A stretch of DNA of 64,000 nt from Candidatus Poribacteria bacterium (GTDB taxonomy: Bacteria; Poribacteria; WGA-4E; WGA-3G): NCBI GenBank assembly GCA_022394775.1, contig JAGFCB010000154.1, positions 1,463 through 65,462 of the forward strand, in the 5' to 3' direction. The notes beneath the pieces were generated by a model. It did not search any database. It saw only the letters and a program-made list of their open reading frames with translations, and was not told the DNA's origin. Positions 6,221 through 55,136 of the stretch are shown here, one piece after another. Position 1 is the stretch's first letter, and every line of letters begins with the position of its first letter. Both the position numbers and the translations under genes were made by a program.

Positions 6221-7654
6221 TTACATTGATTTCTGCGTTAAATTTTTGAAGACTTCATCCAAAAAAATGCGGATACCGCTGTCATCGTCATCTTGGTACT
6301 GTTGACGCTGGCGCTCAAGTGCTTGTATTGAAGGTGCATCACCGATTTGGGCAATTGCATCAACAAGCGTGAGCTGAATTGCGGATTCACTGGTGTTTTC
6401 CAACGCCTTAATGAGCCGATCCCGTGCCTGAACACCACCGATCCCGCCGAGGGCAGAGGCGGCGATGTCTTGCGTGCTGGTATCCCCACTTTCAAAAGCA
6501 GCAATAAGTGCCTCAACAGCGGGTTCACCAATTTGCCTAAGTGTTACGCCTGCTTGGAAACGGATGCCAGGGATTTCTGTCGGATTTTCGAGAACAGCGA
6601 TGAGCGCATCAATCGCAGAAACCGGCTTAAGCGTTCCGAGTATAGCGAGACAGGCACGCCGAATTTCTTGCTCCGGTTCCACCTTGATCTGAATGTATTC
6701 CTGAGCGAGTTCTGCAAGTTGCCCTTCGTTAATTTTCTGGTAAAGCGCCTCAGATCTATGTCTGAACTGCGTTCCGAATGGGGCTTTAAGGGTAGCAGTG
6801 TTTTCAACGCGATCCACGATAAGTAAGCCAAGGATCCCAGCGGATTCAAGCTGCTGTGCCTGAAGGCTATCGGCAGGAAGTTGGTTTACATTGGCACGTT
6901 GAAACTGCTGGAAGAGTTCGTTGAGAACGCTCAGTTCAACGAGACGTTGTAAACTGCTAATTGATGCCTTTCTGAGCGAAAGTTCTGTACTGTTTCTGAA
7001 AATATCCACCAACGGTTCGATTGCTCGGACATCTCCCAAATCGCCAAGTGCGCTCACAGCGGCAATTTTCACACCTATCAATTCAGTGGTTCGGAATTTA
7101 ACGGACTGTTTAGAGAGTTCTCCGATCGTTTTTTTATAATCATCAAGGCTGTAAATTTTACGTTCGTCAACAATCTTTTCAACAACGTCGCCCACCTGAA
7201 TATCAGCGTTCGCGGCAGGGGTTCCCGGACGAATATCTTCAACGCGCACGGTGCCATTGCCTGTTACACTCAATCCAACTTTATCGCCTTGTCTACGGAG
7301 AGAGATGCGAAGTGGCGGTTTATCTTTTAAATGAAGGATAAGGTTATTGTCTTCATCTAACCCGCTTTTCAGTGCCTTGTTAAAGTCGCCAGGGCTTCGG
7401 ATCGGATATTCTGCGATAACATAAGAGATGAGTTCGCCCCTCTCAAGTTGCGCCTTATCTGCGGGTCCATTTGGCGTAGTTTCTAAGACGACAACTCCAC
7501 TCGTCGACCAACGGTCTTTGAGGTCGCTGTCCAGCTGTTGCACTTGCATTTCCAAATGTTCATCGTAATATTGATTGTCGCAGCCGAGTCCGACGATTAC
7601 AGCCAAAAGCGGCACGATAAACATCAAGTAGTGAAGTTTGTCGAACCTGTTCAT
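6221..7654 (-). CDS. lipoprotein with two PDZ domains and C-terminal HEAT (PBS-lyase-like) repeats
   Basis: Lipobox VGLGC after a signal peptide. PDZ-like GPADKAQLERGELI and GTPAANADIQVGDVV. Repeated ALGxLGDxRAIEPL-type HEAT motifs. ATG 7654 is preceded by GGAAGGAG; the track ORF extends to 7669. Confidence 0.75.
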   Translation of the reverse strand: MNRFDKLHYLMFIVPLLAVIVGLGCDNQYYDEHLEMQVQQLDSDLKDRWSTSGVVVLETTPNGPADKAQLERGELISYVIAEYPIRSPGDFNKALKSGLDEDNNLILHLKDKPPLRISLRRQGDKVGLSVTGNGTVRVEDIRPGTPAANADIQVGDVVEKIVDERKIYSLDDYKKTIGELSKQSVKFRTTELIGVKIAAVSALGDLGDVRAIEPLVDIFRNSTELSLRKASISSLQRLVELSVLNELFQQFQRANVNQLPADSLQAQQLESAGILGLLIVDRVENTATLKAPFGTQFRHRSEALYQKINEGQLAELAQEYIQIKVEPEQEIRRACLAILGTLKPVSAIDALIAVLENPTEIPGIRFQAGVTLRQIGEPAVEALIAAFESGDTSTQDIAASALGGIGGVQARDRLIKALENTSESAIQLTLVDAIAQIGDAPSIQALERQRQQYQDDDDSGIRIFLDEVFKNLTQKSM

Positions 7655-7699
7655 TTTTCTCCTTCCCATTTGCTACAAGGTTTCGGTTTATAAGGTGCG

Positions 7700-7726: not shown

Positions 7727-8611
7727 TTAATTCAGAGGAATAACAACATCCCGACTGCTCTGTTCTTGCAAAGCGTCTAAGAGCGGCTCCACAACTTTTT
7801 CGTCGCCGAGGACTGCTAAGGCGCGGATCGCATCAACGCGCAGTGATGATCCTTTGTTTTCCACAATTTTGACTAACTCAGGCACAGCAGCCCCGCCGAT
7901 TTTTCCGAGGGCTTCCACAGCGAGTTGACGGACTTCAGGTTCTTCTCGGTCGCGTTTCCACTTAGCGGATCCGGATTCAATGCGCGCGGCGAGTGCTGGA
8001 ATAGCGGCTTCACTTCCAACTTCCCCGAGTGCCTTGACAACATTCAAACGGGTTTCGGTGCGTCTGTGTTCCAGAAGCTTCACAAGGATCGGTACAATCG
8101 TGTTTGGGTCATCTTTGCCAAGGTGTCCAAGGACCCAATGCGCATTATGCCTATCGCGATTGTCACTCGACTTAATCGCCTTTTGAAGTTGACTGAGGAG
8201 CCGTTTCTGGTCTCCTTGTTTATAAACGCGTTTTAGGGCATCAAGCGCGGCGTTTTGGATATCCAAGTCATCATCACGGAGCGTCTCAAAAACGAGTCTC
8301 TCAAGATATTTACTTTTTTCTTCTTGATAAGCAAGGAACATCTGTTTGCCGCGTTCAGTAATCGATGCCTCTTCCCAATCAGCCGTATTCGGCTCGTAAA
8401 ATTCCTGAGAGTTATAGAGCCCGAGCAAATAATATGCTTCAGCGTTATCAATCTTCTGTTGAAGTGCAAGTTTAAATTCCCGGACAGCGCGTTCTTCTTT
8501 ACGCCGTTTATCCGATTTAATCAATTCTTTGCCCTTCGCGAGGTTCTCGTTCTGGGTGCCGCAGCCAACACCAAAAAGGACGAGTACAAAAACAAGCCAT
8601 ATTTTCTTCAT
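7727..8611 (-). CDS. HEAT-repeat lipoprotein
   Basis: Start ATG 8611 (MKKIWLVFVLVLFGVGCG, lipobox) is preceded by AGGGGA. C-terminal repeats VVKALGEVGSEAAIPAL and AVEALGKIGGAAVPEL. Confidence 0.75.
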   Translation of the reverse strand: MKKIWLVFVLVLFGVGCGTQNENLAKGKELIKSDKRRKEERAVREFKLALQQKIDNAEAYYLLGLYNSQEFYEPNTADWEEASITERGKQMFLAYQEEKSKYLERLVFETLRDDDLDIQNAALDALKRVYKQGDQKRLLSQLQKAIKSSDNRDRHNAHWVLGHLGKDDPNTIVPILVKLLEHRRTETRLNVVKALGEVGSEAAIPALAARIESGSAKWKRDREEPEVRQLAVEALGKIGGAAVPELVKIVENKGSSLRVDAIRALAVLGDEKVVEPLLDALQEQSSRDVVIPLN

Positions 8612-8778
8612 ATTCAATTCCCCTATGAGGTTAGCGCGAGAGCTGCTTGCCTTTCCACTGGAGGTGCTTGCAAATTCACCTGTTTGTAGGCACAATTCAG
8701 GGATGCGCGCCATCTAAAGCGAAGCACCTCACAAAGTGCGCCTACAACAAAGTGAAATGCATAAGTTTTCCTAATATT

Positions 8779-14659: not shown

Positions 14660-14684
14660 GAGGAATGCTTTAAGGAGGTTTTTT

Positions 14685-15557
14685 ATGATATTTACTCATT
14701 TCTGCAGATGTTTACTTATCCTATTGCTCTCTATAGGTATCACAACAACCGGCCACACTTTAGAAATCGGCGACAGCGTGTTTGGTTCCGAGCTTGCCAC
14801 AGATATTGAATACGCAGAAAATTTGCACGGCAAATCAAACGTGTATGTCATAAATTATATGGTACCTGAGTCAAAGTCGGATGCCCCAGAAATCAGCGAA
14901 GAACTCATGCTAAAATATAACACGACGGTAGTGTCGAGACAAGTATCCGAAGTAGAAGAAACCGGATTGTTCATTATTGATAAATCAGGGTACGTGCGAT
15001 GGAGACACTCCGGTGAAACCGAAAATCCGACATTAGAAGAACTCACAACAGCACTCGCCAAACTTAAGCGGAACACGCCTTTACCTATCGGCTCATCTGC
15101 CCCAGATTTTAACCTCATTGAAGCGGACGGCAAAACACAGTTCAAACTTTCGGATTATAGAGGAAAGAAGAACGTCCTTGTCAGTTTATTGCTTCAGACG
15201 TACTGACCGGTTTGTGCGAATTACACGGCGCAGTTTGCGACCGATCAAAAACTATTCAACGAAAAATATGACACTGTTGTTGCAGTGATTAAACCGGAAC
15301 CGCTTTCAGTCATATCGAAATTTAAGGATACTGAAACGATGGACGTTCCGCTGCTTGCGGATCCGGGTTCTTCTGTTCATGAATCTTACGGTATTGTCAA
15401 ACCGTATCACTTCCACCGTCGGGATATGTACCTACCTGCGACCTTCATAGTCGATAAAGCGGGTAACTTAAAATGGCTCTATATCGGTAAACGCAATTCG
15501 GATCGTCCTGCCCGGGAATTGATTCTCGAACAACTCTCGCAGCTGCAGCATAGATGA
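14685..15557 (+). CDS. secreted thioredoxin-fold / AhpC-TSA (peroxiredoxin- or TlpA-like) protein with in-frame TGA; candidate selenoprotein
   Basis: ATG 14685 is preceded by AAGGAGG. Track ORFs 14625..15206 and 15285..15557 share one frame and are split only by TGA 15204..15206. Read-through gives ..SAPDFNLIEADGKTQFKLSDYRGKKNVLVSLLLQTY-U-PVCANY.., a UxxC redox motif. Stop TGA 15555..15557 overlaps the next gene's ATG (ATGA). Confidence 0.6.
15204..15206 (+). other. in-frame TGA, candidate selenocysteine codon (or a nonsense mutation)
   Basis: Occupies the position of the N-terminal Cys of the thioredoxin-fold CxxC motif. 26 sense codons in the same frame link it to the downstream ORF. Confidence 0.5.
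15208..15243 (+). promoter_or_regulatory. possible SECIS-like stem-loop downstream of the TGA
   Basis: Outer stem is 15208..15212 (cggtt) with 15239..15243 (gaccg, one G-U pair). Inner stem is 15215..15218 (tgcg) with 15229..15232 (cgca). Loop is aattacacgg. Drawn by eye and modest, so not decisive. Confidence 0.25.
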
Positions 15558-21338: not shown

Positions 21339-21350
21339 GGACTGTTTTTG

Positions 21351-22094
21351 ATGAAGAACATGGTGTTAATCCCCGCTGGCAACCTTGAGATCGGAAGCGT
21401 CAACGCTTTTTATCTTGACACACACCCCGTGAGAAATCTTGAATACCAGCAGTTTCTGGTTGAAAACCCACAGTGGCAAAAATCGCATATTAAGGATAGG
21501 TTTCACGACGGAGACTACCTAAAGCATTGGGATGGCAATACCTACCCCGAAGGAAAAGCGAATCACCCTGTCGTCTACGTCAGTTGGTTTGCGGCGATGG
21601 CTTACGCTTTGTGGTCAGGGAAACGGCTCCCGACAGAAGCTGAATGGGAATACGCTGCACGCGGCGGGCTTGCGAATCAGAACTATCCGTGGGGTGATAC
21701 GAGCGATACGACTAAAGCCAACTATGATAGAAAAGTAGGAGATACCACCCCTGTCGGTAAGTATTCACCTAACGGTTACGGCTTGTACGATATAACTGGC
21801 AACGTTTGGGAATGGTGTCTTGATCTTTACGACGATGATTTTTTCTTCGCCACGCCTCGCAAGAATCCGCGCGCCGGAACGAATGAGATTGGTTGGTTGA
21901 CAGCCAATTTCACAGACATTGAAACGATCCCGATAAGGGCGTTACGTGGTGGGGGTTGGAGTGCTACCGAAAAAGGTATCTGCGTCACCCATCGCTTACT
22001 GCTCTCGCCGACAAACACAATCTATGATTACGGCTTTCGTTGTGCGCAGTCAACGTCAGGAACGACTGCCGAGTCGGAACAAGACGCACTATAG
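21351..22094 (+). CDS. formylglycine-generating enzyme family (SUMF1/FGE-sulfatase domain) protein
   Basis: HPVVYVSWFAAMAYALWSGKRLPTEAEWEYAARGG, GNVWEWC and RGGGW motifs. Starts 10-13 nt after the kinase stop. Confidence 0.85.
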   Translation: MKNMVLIPAGNLEIGSVNAFYLDTHPVRNLEYQQFLVENPQWQKSHIKDRFHDGDYLKHWDGNTYPEGKANHPVVYVSWFAAMAYALWSGKRLPTEAEWEYAARGGLANQNYPWGDTSDTTKANYDRKVGDTTPVGKYSPNGYGLYDITGNVWEWCLDLYDDDFFFATPRKNPRAGTNEIGWLTANFTDIETIPIRALRGGGWSATEKGICVTHRLLLSPTNTIYDYGFRCAQSTSGTTAESEQDAL

Positions 22095-51556: not shown

Positions 51557-52090
51557 ATGCTGTACGACTTGGCAATTGATGAAGAATTAGAGAAGATGGA
51601 CGAAGACGCTGCATTAAAAGCATGGAGTGCCCAAGAAATCCAGATTTCACTAAAAGAACTGATGCGTCCGATTGTCACCATTGACATCAGCTGTAGCACA
51701 AACGAGGCAATTGACCTGCTCTTAGCACACAAAATAGGCGCAGCACCCGTGGTTGAAAACGGCACGCTCTGTGGAATTTTCAGTGAACGAGACGTATTAA
51801 ACAAAATTCTCAACAAGCAGGTTGGAGATCTGGATGTCATCGGCGTTGAAGAATTCATGATAGCCGCTCCACAGACGGCACAACAGGAAGATTCACTGAA
51901 CATCGCTATTCTCTACATGGCACAAGGTGGTTACCGACATCTTCCAATCGTTGACAGTGGGAATCGTCCGATCGGCATGGTATCCATTCGTGACGTGATC
52001 TCTTATCTCGTAGAGGAATTTCCGCAGGAAGTCTTAACACTACCACCGAGACCGGTTCGGGATGCCCTTAAAGCCCGAGAGGGCGCGTAG
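51557..52090 (+). CDS. CBS domain-pair protein
   Basis: ..GAAPVVENGTLCGIFSERDVL.. and ..YRHLPIVDSGNRPIGMVSIRDVI.. Confidence 0.8.
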   Translation: MLYDLAIDEELEKMDEDAALKAWSAQEIQISLKELMRPIVTIDISCSTNEAIDLLLAHKIGAAPVVENGTLCGIFSERDVLNKILNKQVGDLDVIGVEEFMIAAPQTAQQEDSLNIAILYMAQGGYRHLPIVDSGNRPIGMVSIRDVISYLVEEFPQEVLTLPPRPVRDALKAREGA

Positions 52091-52208
52091 ACGTTTAAAA
52101 TTTACATATTTCTCAGGTGCGGTTTCTGAGCGCGAACCCTATGTCCTAACATCTTGCAGGCGCGCTTCCCAAGCGTGCACCTATCACACAAAAAAGGAAG
52201 CAATTGTG

Positions 52209-54062
52209 ATGCGCAAGCCAGTAGAGCAACTCGAGGAAGCGACAATCCTATTTGCTGGCGACTCCGGCGATGGTTCACAGACCATTGGCACACAAATGAC
52301 AGAGACCACCGCCCTCATTGGTAACGATGTCGCAACCCTACCCGACTACCCCGCCGAGATTCGCGCACCCGCCGGATCGTTAGCAGGTGTGTCCGGGTTC
52401 CAACTCCATTTCTCAAGCGAACAAATCCACACGCCCGGAGATCTCTGCGATGTACTCGTAGCGATGAATCCCGCCGCTTTAAAGGTCCACCTCCATAAAC
52501 TCAAACCTAACGGCATCCTCATCGTAAATTCTAATAACTTTGCGCGCCGCAATCTACGTCTCGCTGGATATGAAGAAGATCCGCTCGAAGATGATAAATT
52601 TACAAAATATCAGGTTTTCCGCGTTGAATTAACACAACTCACTCGCAAAGCACTCGAAGCAACACAGCTGACAACACGCGAAATGGATCTGTGTAAGAAC
52701 TTTTTCGCGCTCGGTATGATTCTCTGGCTTTATAATCGCCCGATGGAATACGCCATGAAATGGGTGAAAACAAAGTTTGCCCAGAAACCGCAATTCATCG
52801 AAGGCAATATCCTCGCGCTTCGCGCTGGAAACACTTACTGCGAAGCCACTGAACAGTTCGCTGTCTCCTACGATGTCAAACCGGCTACGTTTGAACCCGG
52901 CACCTACCGAAATATCGAAGGCAATATGGCGACAGTCCTTGGACTCGTTGCCGCTTCACATCAATCCGGTCTGCCGCTCGTGTATGGCAGCTACCCGATA
53001 ACTCCTGCGAGCGATATTCTCCACGGACTCGCTAAATACCGGAATTTCGGTGTCGTCACAATGCAGATGGAAGATGAGATTGCGGCTGTCGGTGTCGCAA
53101 TAGGTGCAGCATTTAGTGGTGCCCTCGGTGTCACCGGTAGTAGTGGTCCCGGTCTCGCGCTCAAATCAGAGGCGATTAACCTTGCTATGATTGCCGAATT
53201 ACCGATCGTAATATGCAATATTCAGCGCGCGGGTCCGTCAACGGGAATGCCAACAAAAACGGAACAATCAGATCTGTTGCAGATGTTTTACGGTAGGAAC
53301 GGTGAGTCTCCTGTTCCGATCATCGCTTCATCACGTCCGTATGACTGTTTTGACGCTGTCTACGAAGCGTGTCGCATCGCGGTCAAATATAGAACGCCGG
53401 TCATCTTCCTCTCTGACCTCTACATTGGAATGGGGGCTGAACCGTGGAAAATCCCGCAACTCTCTGAATTGCCAGAGATTCGACCCGATTTTGCTGTGAG
53501 CGCGGATACCGGTAACGGATTTGAACCGTATCTACGCGATCCAGAGACATTGGCGCGTCCGTGGGCAAAACCTGGTACCGCCGGTTTAGAGCACCGCATC
53601 GGCGGCTTAGAGAAATCCGATGTAACAGGACACGTTAGTTATGATGCCGAAAACCACGAGAAAATGGTGGAAATCCGCGCTGAAAAGGTCGCACGCGTCG
53701 CTGATGACTATCCGCCAACAGAAGTGTTTGGCGCCCAGGAAGGCGAAATCCTCTTACTTGGATGGGGTGGTACTTTCGGCGCGATTCGAACCGCAGCAGA
53801 GAGCTATGTCGCCGGAGGACTCCCGGTAGGGCACGTCCATCTTCGACATCTCAATCCGTTCCCAAACGATTTAAGAGACATTCTTAGCAGATTCAAAAAG
53901 ATTTTAATTCCTGAACTTAACAGCGGGCAACTCCGTCAACTCATTCGCAGCACCTATCTCATTGACGCGATCGGACTTAACAAGGTGCAGGGACAACCTT
54001 TCCACGTTTTTGAGCTGCATTCCAAAATTGACGAGATACTTAAAGAAATAGGACACCTTTAG
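52209..54062 (+). CDS. korA: 2-oxoacid:acceptor (ferredoxin) oxidoreductase subunit alpha (fused gamma-alpha)
   Basis: N-terminal FAGDSGDGSQT (gamma-type domain), then GSYPITPASDIL (alpha domain). ATG 52209 is preceded by AAGGAAG. Confidence 0.85.
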   Translation: MRKPVEQLEEATILFAGDSGDGSQTIGTQMTETTALIGNDVATLPDYPAEIRAPAGSLAGVSGFQLHFSSEQIHTPGDLCDVLVAMNPAALKVHLHKLKPNGILIVNSNNFARRNLRLAGYEEDPLEDDKFTKYQVFRVELTQLTRKALEATQLTTREMDLCKNFFALGMILWLYNRPMEYAMKWVKTKFAQKPQFIEGNILALRAGNTYCEATEQFAVSYDVKPATFEPGTYRNIEGNMATVLGLVAASHQSGLPLVYGSYPITPASDILHGLAKYRNFGVVTMQMEDEIAAVGVAIGAAFSGALGVTGSSGPGLALKSEAINLAMIAELPIVICNIQRAGPSTGMPTKTEQSDLLQMFYGRNGESPVPIIASSRPYDCFDAVYEACRIAVKYRTPVIFLSDLYIGMGAEPWKIPQLSELPEIRPDFAVSADTGNGFEPYLRDPETLARPWAKPGTAGLEHRIGGLEKSDVTGHVSYDAENHEKMVEIRAEKVARVADDYPPTEVFGAQEGEILLLGWGGTFGAIRTAAESYVAGGLPVGHVHLRHLNPFPNDLRDILSRFKKILIPELNSGQLRQLIRSTYLIDAIGLNKVQGQPFHVFELHSKIDEILKEIGHL

Positions 54063-54089
54063 CCTCAACACCAAAGGTGGTAACACATC

Positions 54090-55136
54090 ATGAAAAGGAA
54101 AAGAACTTCACGCATTCCAGGCGGGGCACCCACCCTGACAAAAAAGGATTTTGAGTCCGACCAAGATGTCCGCTGGTGTCCAGGTTGCGGTGACTACTCC
54201 ATCCTTGCCCAGACACAACACATTATGCCAGACCTCGGCATCCCAAAAGAAAATGTAGTCTTTATCTCTGGTATCGGGTGTTCGAGTCGGTTCCCGTATT
54301 ATATGAACACTTACGGTTTCCATACCATCCACGGCAGGGCACCGACGATCGCTTCTGGTGTTAAAACGGCGAATCCTGATCTCTCTGTCTGGGTGATTAC
54401 GGGAGATGGCGACGCGCTCTCAATCGGTGGTAACCATTTCATTCACTTGATGCGCCGCAATTTTGACATCAATGTGCTGCTGTTCAACAACCGTATCTAT
54501 GGACTCACCAAAGGACAATACTCGCCGACATCAGAGCGCGGTAAACAGACATATTCTACCCCTCTGGGCTCCTTGGACACACCGTTTAACCCGATTAGCC
54601 TCGCATTGGCTTCCGGTGCCACGTTCGTCGCACGTTCCGTTGACATAGATTCAGGGCACTTACGTCCGTTACTTAAAGCTGCCTTCGAGCATAAAGGCAC
54701 CTCTTTCATTGAGATCTACCAAAATTGTCACATCTTTAACGATGCAACTTTTGAACTCTACAGAGAAAAAGAGTTTAAGACCGATAATACGGTGCTTCTT
54801 GAGCACGGCGAACCGCTTGTTTTTGGGGCAGAACACGATAAAGGTATCCGACTCAACGGTTTCCAACCTGAAGTTGTTGACATCACAAATGGTGAGTACT
54901 CCACCGATGATCTCATCGTCCATGATCAGTACACTGAGGATACTACCCTGGCGAACTTCCTCGCGGGGATGAGTGATACGTCTGACCTGCCGCATCCGAT
55001 GGGTATCTTCCGCAGTGTCCGGCATCCGTGCTACGAAGACTTGATGACGAACCAAATCCAAACTGCGAAAGAACGCACAGGTGAAGGCGACCTCGAAGCA
55101 CTTCTCAATGACGGCGAAACATGGACTGTGTCATAG
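54090..55136 (+). CDS. korB: 2-oxoacid:ferredoxin oxidoreductase subunit beta
   Basis: WCPGCGDY, GIGCSSR and TPP-binding GDGDALSIGGNH motifs. Confidence 0.9.
   Translation: MKRKRTSRIPGGAPTLTKKDFESDQDVRWCPGCGDYSILAQTQHIMPDLGIPKENVVFISGIGCSSRFPYYMNTYGFHTIHGRAPTIASGVKTANPDLSVWVITGDGDALSIGGNHFIHLMRRNFDINVLLFNNRIYGLTKGQYSPTSERGKQTYSTPLGSLDTPFNPISLALASGATFVARSVDIDSGHLRPLLKAAFEHKGTSFIEIYQNCHIFNDATFELYREKEFKTDNTVLLEHGEPLVFGAEHDKGIRLNGFQPEVVDITNGEYSTDDLIVHDQYTEDTTLANFLAGMSDTSDLPHPMGIFRSVRHPCYEDLMTNQIQTAKERTGEGDLEALLNDGETWTVS

Follow-up and report, generated by a model that had tools for sequence, protein, structure and literature searches.

Gene layout and reading frame

The 64,000-nucleotide stretch of Candidatus Poribacteria bacterium contig JAGFCB010000154.1 analysed here (the window) carries, at 14685..15557 on the forward strand, a gene for which an earlier note had proposed a selenoprotein product. 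It is a single frame of 290 codons plus a stop, and its sole interruption is a TGA at 15204-15206, the codon that would specify selenocysteine (Sec). The note had described two open reading frames (ORFs) in the same frame, split only by this TGA and 26 sense codons, and its coordinates are borne out: one ORF runs from 14625 or 14685 to 15206, the other spans 15285..15557, and the 26 codons occupy 15207..15284. From the TGA to the final stop, TGA 15555-15557, there are 116 sense codons. Read-through gives ...NVLVSLLLQTY-U-PVCANYTAQFATDQKLF..., in which Y-U-P-V-C are residues 173-177.

We prefer ATG 14685 over ATG 14625 as the start because it lies 6 nt 3' of AAGGAGG (14672-14678), a strong Shine-Dalgarno sequence; homologues also start at the equivalent Met. 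At the other end, the final stop overlaps ATG 15554 of a gene for a Polysacc_synt/MurJ-family flippase. The earlier note had taken this ATGA overlap as a sign that ribosomes normally reach the 3' end of the gene. The overlap is present, but among the homologous loci described below it is kept only in the closer clade (L001-L017); the divergent clade lacks it, and its weight as evidence is small. Synteny with the TsaB and flippase genes is likewise confined to the closer clade; the neighbours in the divergent clade are unrelated.

The features of the gene, with the evidence for each, are as follows.

14672..14678, forward strand: Shine-Dalgarno sequence AAGGAGG, read from the sequence, 6 nt before the start codon.
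14685..15557, forward strand: full coding sequence of the proposed selenoprotein, 290 codons plus stop, with Sec as codon 174 (read-through translation; tblastn with 30 Poribacteria loci; substitution ratios).
14685..14759, forward strand: putative signal peptide of the Sec export pathway, residues 1-25 (inspection only).
14760..15071, forward strand: degenerate N-terminal redoxin-like domain, residues about 26-129, that lacks a redox motif and ends in an ELAKLKR linker (match to the protein's own C-terminal domain).
15072..15554, forward strand: predicted catalytic AhpC-TSA/Redoxin (thioredoxin-fold) domain with U174-P-V-C177 (Pfam and PDB alignments).
15204..15206, forward strand: UGA very probably read as selenocysteine, residue 174 (TGA in 31/31; family entries end here; CxxC alignment).
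15213..15215, forward strand: codon of Cys177, the presumed resolving Cys of UxxC (Cys in 31/31; peroxidatic-Cys position of peroxiredoxins).
15226..15243, forward strand: candidate bacterial selenocysteine insertion sequence (SECIS) hairpin (local folding of 31 sequences; suppressed synonymous change).
15435..15437, forward strand: Pro251 of L-P-A-T-F, candidate cis-Pro, at the position of the peroxiredoxin catalytic Arg (Pro in 31/31; alignment with 2ywn).
15554..15557, forward strand: ATGA overlap of the true stop with the flippase start (ORF coordinates, Pfam).

Conservation of the UGA and coding constraint downstream

We scanned one genome per GTDB species and found 30 further loci, which together with the window make 31 sequences. 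Twenty-eight of the loci come from metagenome-assembled genomes titled Poribacteria and two from entries titled 'uncultured bacterium'; identity ranges from 48 to 90%. The tblastn matches cross the stop in the 30 loci and span up to residues 1-290. At the Sec column the codon is TGA in 31/31 sequences, with TAA, TAG, TGC and TGT in 0/31. It is followed by [PI]-x-C-[AS], with P in 30/31, and then by about 115 conserved codons. A search of 5.8 billion clustered proteins gave the same picture: the 71 family clusters that it returned are 38-91% identical over the stretch that matches, most of those with a name are Candidatus Poribacteria, and 71/71 stop at the Sec column, 70 of them with ...LLLQTY and one with ...LLLRTY. 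Thus, at the column on which the selenoprotein proposal turned, the 71 clusters and the 30 loci agree on TGA, and more distant relatives have Cys.

The sequence beyond the TGA behaves as coding sequence. In pairwise comparisons of the 31 sequences, the ratio of non-synonymous to synonymous differences per site (pN/pS) was 0.24 for the 45 codons upstream of the TGA, 0.25 for codons +1 to +26 and 0.19 for codons +27 to +111. Only frame 1 is open downstream, and the other frames hold 2-8 stops. With pS at about 0.66, synonymous sites are near saturation; given this, an identical TGA at one column in 30/30 other loci is far beyond chance.

These data bear directly on the alternative that the earlier note had kept open, a nonsense pseudogene in which a Cys codon turned into TGA, leaving the gene dead or truncated. 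Such a change (TGY to TGA) takes a single base, gene callers do split the gene into products of 173 and 72-90 aa, and one relative (locus L013) has an extra premature TAG. However, a dead gene does not fit a TGA that is kept in every species despite near-saturated synonymous sites, nor 116 downstream codons under purifying selection like that upstream, nor the lack of any TGY allele among the 71 clusters and 30 loci, and we consider a pseudogene extremely unlikely. Even less room is left for a sequencing or assembly error at the TGA, for which nothing specific speaks beyond the generic possibility that attends metagenome-assembled sequence. The same 873 nt, TGA included, are present in a Logan-project contig assembled from run SRR12727663, 30 further species, sequenced in many studies and on many platforms, have the TGA at this column too, and no TGC or TGT variant was seen; the chance of an artefact is negligible.

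The locus could also yield two polypeptides, one of 173 residues ending at the UGA and another from an independent internal start. In the window, GTG 15285 opens a 90-codon ORF, and gene callers annotate a separate downstream product. Yet this codon (+27) is GTG in only 4/31 sequences (across all 31 the column reads Ala in 17, Thr in 8, Val in 4 and Lys in 2), and it has no Shine-Dalgarno sequence; no conserved restart codon follows the TGA in the 31 sequences. Moreover, the 26 codons between TGA and GTG, constrained as given above, include the invariant Cys177, and neither fragment is a complete redoxin domain. We therefore find two separate products very improbable. A global reassignment of TGA was rejected as well, since TGA terminates 10/46 long ORFs of the window in addition to the selenoprotein gene itself. 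Taken together, the conserved TGA, the constraint downstream of it, the non-conserved restart, the identical second assembly and the use of TGA as a normal terminator exclude a pseudogene, an assembly error, two polypeptides and global reassignment.

Three observations on individual sequences and on the codon context belong here. In 31/31 sequences the UGA is preceded by TAC, never by TAT, and in 30/31 it is followed by C, a fixed C-UGA-C context. The premature TAG of L013 (CBDFHD010000002.1, 3451-3453) replaces GAG 23 codons 5' of the Sec-UGA (3520), within the conserved ...ADGKT-E-FTLSDY..., and is either an error in sequencing or a sign that the selenoprotein gene has truly become a pseudogene in that lineage. 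In P0066 (272 aa; a 9.9-kb ENA contig), a transposase-like zinc-ribbon/helix-turn-helix N-terminus continues in frame into the final ~95 residues ahead of the UGA, which looks like an insertion-sequence insertion or a chimeric contig disrupting the N-terminal domain.

Domain architecture and active site

For the Pfam search, the read-through protein was given a C in place of U. As the earlier note had claimed, read-through restores a complete AhpC-TSA-type domain: AhpC-TSA (PF00578) matches at 4.8e-22 (78.7 bits; cut-off 26) as one complete domain over residues 135-272, and Redoxin (PF08534) matches at 5.6e-21 over the same residues. The 173-residue upstream fragment holds only the first ~32 residues of the redoxin domain.

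The note had also placed the TGA at the attacking Cys of a CxxC motif. In HMMER alignments with solved structures, U174 does fall on the first Cys of W-C-S-I-C in 4hqs, a pneumococcal thioredoxin-family protein, and distant relatives have CPFC here; in 2ywn, a BCP-type peroxiredoxin, it falls on the Thr of F-T-Q-V-C. Cys177, which is Cys in 31/31, corresponds to the second CxxC Cys of 4hqs and to the Cys of TxxC in 2ywn, the peroxidatic position.

It is at these positions that two possible functions part. The protein might be a Sec-dependent peroxidase, that is, a hydroperoxide reductase of the peroxiredoxin type, rather than a protein-disulfide oxidoreductase. In Pfam and PDB it matches AhpC-TSA and BCP-type peroxiredoxins best (3drn and 2ywn, 3.4e-09 and 1.6e-07), Cys177 occupies the peroxidatic position, and selenolates react quickly with peroxides. 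However, the PxxxTxxC motif of peroxiredoxins is reduced to its Cys (L-Q-T-Y-U-P-V-C, with Leu at -7 in place of Pro and Sec in place of Thr), and in the 2ywn alignment the catalytic Arg column reads L-P-A with an invariant Pro251 (Pro in 31/31; codon +77). The protein is not a canonical peroxiredoxin; it lacks all three of the residues Pro, Thr and Arg that mark one. We take Pro251, in L-P-A-T-F, to be a candidate for the cis-Pro of TlpA/ResA-type oxidoreductases, and a CxxC-type motif together with such a Pro is the signature of thiol:disulfide oxidoreductases. The selenoprotein PrxU has its Sec at another position (TxxU), and the PrxU model (NF040737) scores 22.7 against a cut-off of 270. 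A peroxidase function is thus doubtful, although it is the most plausible of the alternatives considered here. The remaining NCBIfam scores are also below cut-off: 49.4 against 170 for ResA (NF002854), 41 against 120 for the SelL-related model (NF040769) and 15.6 against 300 for WAxxUGC_long (NF041054).

On inspection, one basic residue and a hydrophobic core (LLILLLSIGI) are seen at the N-terminus, with a putative cleavage site before L-E-[IV]-G-D, and homologues show A-x-A, S-x-A or S-x-G directly before LE[VI]GD. This resembles a signal peptide of the Sec export pathway, and the protein probably works outside the cytoplasm. The region between it and the catalytic domain appears to be a relic. 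In P0057, a distant member of the family, residues ~24-178 form a full N-terminal copy of the C-terminal domain (35% identity over 156 aa, E 3e-37) in which QTQ-PID replaces QTYUPVC, so that the U/C motif is lost. In the window protein only the last ~35 residues of the N-terminal domain still match the C-terminal domain (E 3e-05). The N-terminal half is a second, tandem copy of the catalytic domain, which is still complete in the divergent clade and has degenerated in the clade of the window.

A conserved hairpin downstream of the UGA

For the recoding signal, the earlier note had drawn a modest stem-loop at 15208..15243. Its 3' part stands as a conserved element, and the rest does not. The hairpin at 15226-15243, CGGCGCA-GUU-UGCG(A)CCG, has 7 bp with one bulged A (-8.4 kcal/mol) and begins 20 nt after the UGA; its apical loop, GUU, lies at 15233-15235, 26 nt after the UGA. 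When folded locally, the same hairpin forms in 31/31 sequences (-4.0 to -10.1 kcal/mol) and ranks among the top ~1% of the gene's 25-nt windows (median 0.9%). Twenty-five sequences have GUU as the loop, and the other 6 have AGUUC or AGUUG. The core, CGCAGTTTGCG, occurs once in the window against 0.07 occurrences expected.

Published constraints for bacterial SECIS elements are a loop of 3-9 nt, an upper stem of 4-16 bp, a UGA-to-loop distance of 16-37 nt and a minimum free energy of at most -7.5 kcal/mol, together with a G within the loop's first two positions and G or U next to it (PMC13188914). The window hairpin lies within these limits with its GUU loop, its 7 bp and single bulge, its distance of 26 nt and its energy.

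The strongest evidence for a constraint at the RNA level comes from suppressed synonymous sites. Third positions of codons +8 (GCG/TCG), +9 (CAG) and +11 (GCG) are G in 31/31 sequences; unlike those at +8 and +11, the other Ala codons of the gene use all four bases. Across codons +7 to +11, pS is 0.12 versus 0.53-0.67 elsewhere, a roughly five-fold suppression.

The outer stem occurs in two registers, with the bulged A in the window clade and without a bulge in the divergent clade, for which reason the pairs were tallied clade by clade. At pair 33-47/48, G-C gives way to A-U, fully compensated, in L011/L013, L018 and L024, across both registers, and pair 34 is G-C, U-A or U-G. About 90% of cells are paired, compared with 10-57% in slid registers. 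Double changes affect one pair per clade, a result matched by 3/500 and 34/500 shuffles.

Selenocysteine machinery and weighing of the evidence

Outside the locus, the synthesis and decoding machinery is on record for the phylum: SelA (COG1921), SelB (COG3276) and SelD (COG0709) are listed for Poribacteria bin44, bin70 and the WGA-3G single-cell genome (PMC5649159, Table S4), and Sec-type group 4 [NiFeSe] hydrogenases have been described in Poribacteria MAGs (PMC13582414). In the window we ran NCBIfam on 20 proteins, chosen by SelA/SelB/SelD-like size or by adjacency to the gene, with no sel gene among them, and searched for tRNAs with ARAGORN and Rfam, which gave tRNA-Ala only and no tRNA-Sec. 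Other TGA-split ORF pairs were sought across the window, and none was convincing.

Several results count against a SECIS-dependent selenoprotein. No selA, selB, selD or tRNA-Sec lies within the window, which says little for 64 kb, and comparison of the neighbourhoods between loci revealed no conserved redox partner gene. At the RNA level, formal covariation is modest, with 3/7 pairs invariant and only one pair showing double changes, and 8/31 homologue hairpins are weaker than -7.5 kcal/mol (-4.0 to -6.9), deviating in energy alone. The 86 nt around the UGA (15195-15280) have no folding advantage over shuffles (z = +0.6), from all 31 sequences RNAalifold returned only the invariant 3-bp CGC/GCG core and an unrelated 4-bp stem, and Rfam gave no SECIS family match at the gathering threshold or at E <= 10. 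In the window clade only, a competing longer stem is predicted at 15204-15250, with the UGA at its base and a loop without G. Finally, the export signal, the cis-Pro and the chemistry are read from sequence only.

The longer stem is built of a UGA/UCA base, CCGGU/ACCG(G) and CUGUGCC/GGCGCAG, with the loop AAYUAYAC; it could be a lower stem or incidental.

A further rival is that the UGA is recoded, but not as Sec. It could be read as Cys through a SelB-dependent tRNA of the tRNA(ReC) type, or as Trp or Cys by near-cognate read-through at a leaky UGA-C. Transfer RNAs like tRNA(ReC) do read SECIS-associated UGA as Cys in several phyla (PMC13582414), and the leaky UGA-C context is found in 30/31 sequences. 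But TGY would encode Cys simply, leaving no reason to hold TGA in 31/31 species, the conserved hairpin with its suppressed synonymous change argues for factor-dependent recoding over a passive leak, and Poribacteria have annotated SelA and SelD, without which Sec cannot be made. Recoding to another residue is improbable. Overall, it is very likely that UGA 15204-15206 is genuinely recoded, as Sec, and that the product is a redox-active selenoprotein.

Distribution and Cys-containing relatives

With the post-UGA part as the query, an exhaustive HMMER pass over 1.84 billion representative proteins found only 4 matches below 1e-10, all of them fragments of the same family. Neither here nor among the 71 clusters and 30 loci did we find a Cys-form orthologue within the family. 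On present data, the family is restricted to Poribacteria and lacks a Cys orthologue. The nearest Cys forms are more distant proteins with 29-37% identity over the post-UGA part, which carry Cys at the Sec column (CPFC in P0102, P0145 and P0183; WCPFC in P0096 and P0112) in the contexts LLLETV-CPFC, LLKTE-CPFC or W-CPFC. They have in common with the window protein a C-terminal IGK.N.DRP motif.

Many database proteins of ~100 residues (P0097-P0100, P0105 and similar) match only the post-CxxC part of the redoxin domain, and these may be downstream halves of other unannotated UxxC selenoproteins. P0097, which combines HEAT repeats with a redoxin domain, has W-W-G-Y-C at the expected CxxC; this may be a TGA translated as Trp.

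Comparison with known selenoproteins and redox proteins

That Sec comes first in a UxxC motif agrees with a known bacterial pattern, as the earlier note had stated. UxxC selenoproteins of the peroxiredoxin (Prx)-like 1/3 and thioredoxin (Trx)-like types are tabulated in PMC2398784 (Table 2), and a 'Prx-like thiol:disulfide oxidoreductase' appears in PMC13188914. Thioredoxin-fold and Prx-like-fold UxxC proteins with an in-frame bacterial SECIS are among the commonest predicted bacterial selenoprotein types.

The closest known group is that of the Prx-like UxxC/UxxU selenoproteins (PF00578; reference WP_010940744.1) known through Global Ocean Sampling (GOS) and Sargasso Sea data. The Poribacteria protein is like them in its AhpC-TSA/Redoxin fold, in having Sec first in UxxC and in a SECIS-type hairpin just downstream in the coding region, and the proteins are predicted ones in both cases. 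The GOS Prx-like families have many Cys homologues, whereas no Cys-form orthologue was found for the Poribacteria family, which also adds the decayed duplicate domain and the signal-peptide-like N-terminus.

Likeness to the TlpA/ResA/CcmG/Etrx type (PDB 4hqs, 1st9 and 3or5) extends to the redoxin domain, the W/Y-C-x-x-C column, the Pro before the ...TF[IL][IV]DK.G strand (a candidate cis-Pro position) and a putative N-terminal export or anchor signal. The NCBIfam match to ResA is weak (4.7e-13, score 49 versus a cut-off of 170). In contrast to this type, the Poribacteria protein has Sec in place of the attacking Cys, there are no cytochrome c maturation, CcdA/DsbD or Sco genes near its gene, and its C-terminal IGK.N.DRP is that of the PRX-like CPFC proteins.

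Of the proteins with solved structures, the BCP/PrxQ peroxiredoxins (3drn, 2ywn) match best in sequence, and Cys177 coincides with their peroxidatic Cys, but the Poribacteria protein is without their catalytic Pro, Thr and Arg. From PrxU, which is TxxU, it differs in being UxxC with Sec at the Thr position. The SelL-related proteins with CxxC (NF040769) are similar in having an AhpC-TSA-like domain with a CxxC-type motif in place of TxxC, although the match is weak (1.5e-10); proteins of this type may be linked to CDD PRX_like2.

Proposed mechanism and significance

Decoding by SelB and a SECIS, export, the chemistry of the reaction and its substrate are inferred from the features above. When a ribosome reaches UGA 15204-15206, the hairpin at 15226-15243 with its GUU loop would act as a bacterial SECIS and recruit SelB-GTP-Sec-tRNA(Sec), so that selenocysteine would be inserted instead of termination. 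The product would consist of a signal-peptide-like N-terminus, a redox-dead domain copy and a C-terminal thioredoxin-fold domain with Sec174-Pro-Val-Cys177. By analogy with CxxC oxidoreductases of the TlpA/ResA and PRX-like kinds, the Sec174 selenolate would attack an oxidised substrate, which may be a disulfide, a sulfenate or a peroxide. Cys177 would then resolve the adduct as a selenenylsulfide, and a reductant would recycle the enzyme.

Judged from its sequence, the Poribacteria protein is apparently a new lineage-specific, Sec-only member of the UxxC Prx-like/Trx-like selenoproteins. Its unusual traits are the apparent lack of a Cys orthologue, the degenerate tandem duplicate domain and the probable export. 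The kind itself is well known, and the protein extends it usefully without being a conceptual surprise. It nevertheless adds a well-supported selenoprotein to Poribacteria, for which the literature searched mentions only Sec-type hydrogenases. That the UGA has never reverted to Cys despite saturated synonymous sites argues for a strong catalytic advantage of Sec in this redox enzyme, which is probably extracytoplasmic.

The family also has a practical consequence for annotation. In all 71 clusters, some of which go under 'hypothetical protein' or 'peroxiredoxin', the protein breaks off at the active site, and the catalytic half is absent or called as a separate small ORF. The annotation of the whole family needs correcting.

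Poribacteria are largely known as marine sponge symbionts. It is tempting to speculate that this is a phylum-restricted, obligately Sec-dependent, exported two-domain redox family without a Cys-form orthologue in ~1.8 billion representatives, a broader claim that we put forward tentatively and would not yet back at even odds. If true, Poribacteria would need selenium for redox work outside the cytoplasm, for instance to deal with oxidants from the host or to maintain the thiols of envelope or secreted proteins, and the decayed duplicate domain may be a substrate-binding or docking module.

Other genes of the window

Two further regions of the window touch on selenium in name. At 21348-22094 on the forward strand lies an FGE-sulfatase/EgtB-C-terminal-like protein with sub-threshold matches to GldK, EgtB and the selenoneine synthase SenA (67 versus 420 bits for SenA); the likeness to SenA reflects a common domain only and is no evidence for selenium metabolism. 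On the reverse strand, 6221-7669 and 7727-8713 encode adjacent HEAT-repeat proteins with NblB/CpcE-like matches, and a PDZ segment of the former weakly matches a 'Trx7/PDZ (seleno)protein' model through PDZ alone. At 52062-55136 on the forward strand, a 2-oxoacid:acceptor oxidoreductase is encoded by neighbouring genes for its alpha and beta subunits, each of which scores above the cut-off of its NCBIfam subfamily.

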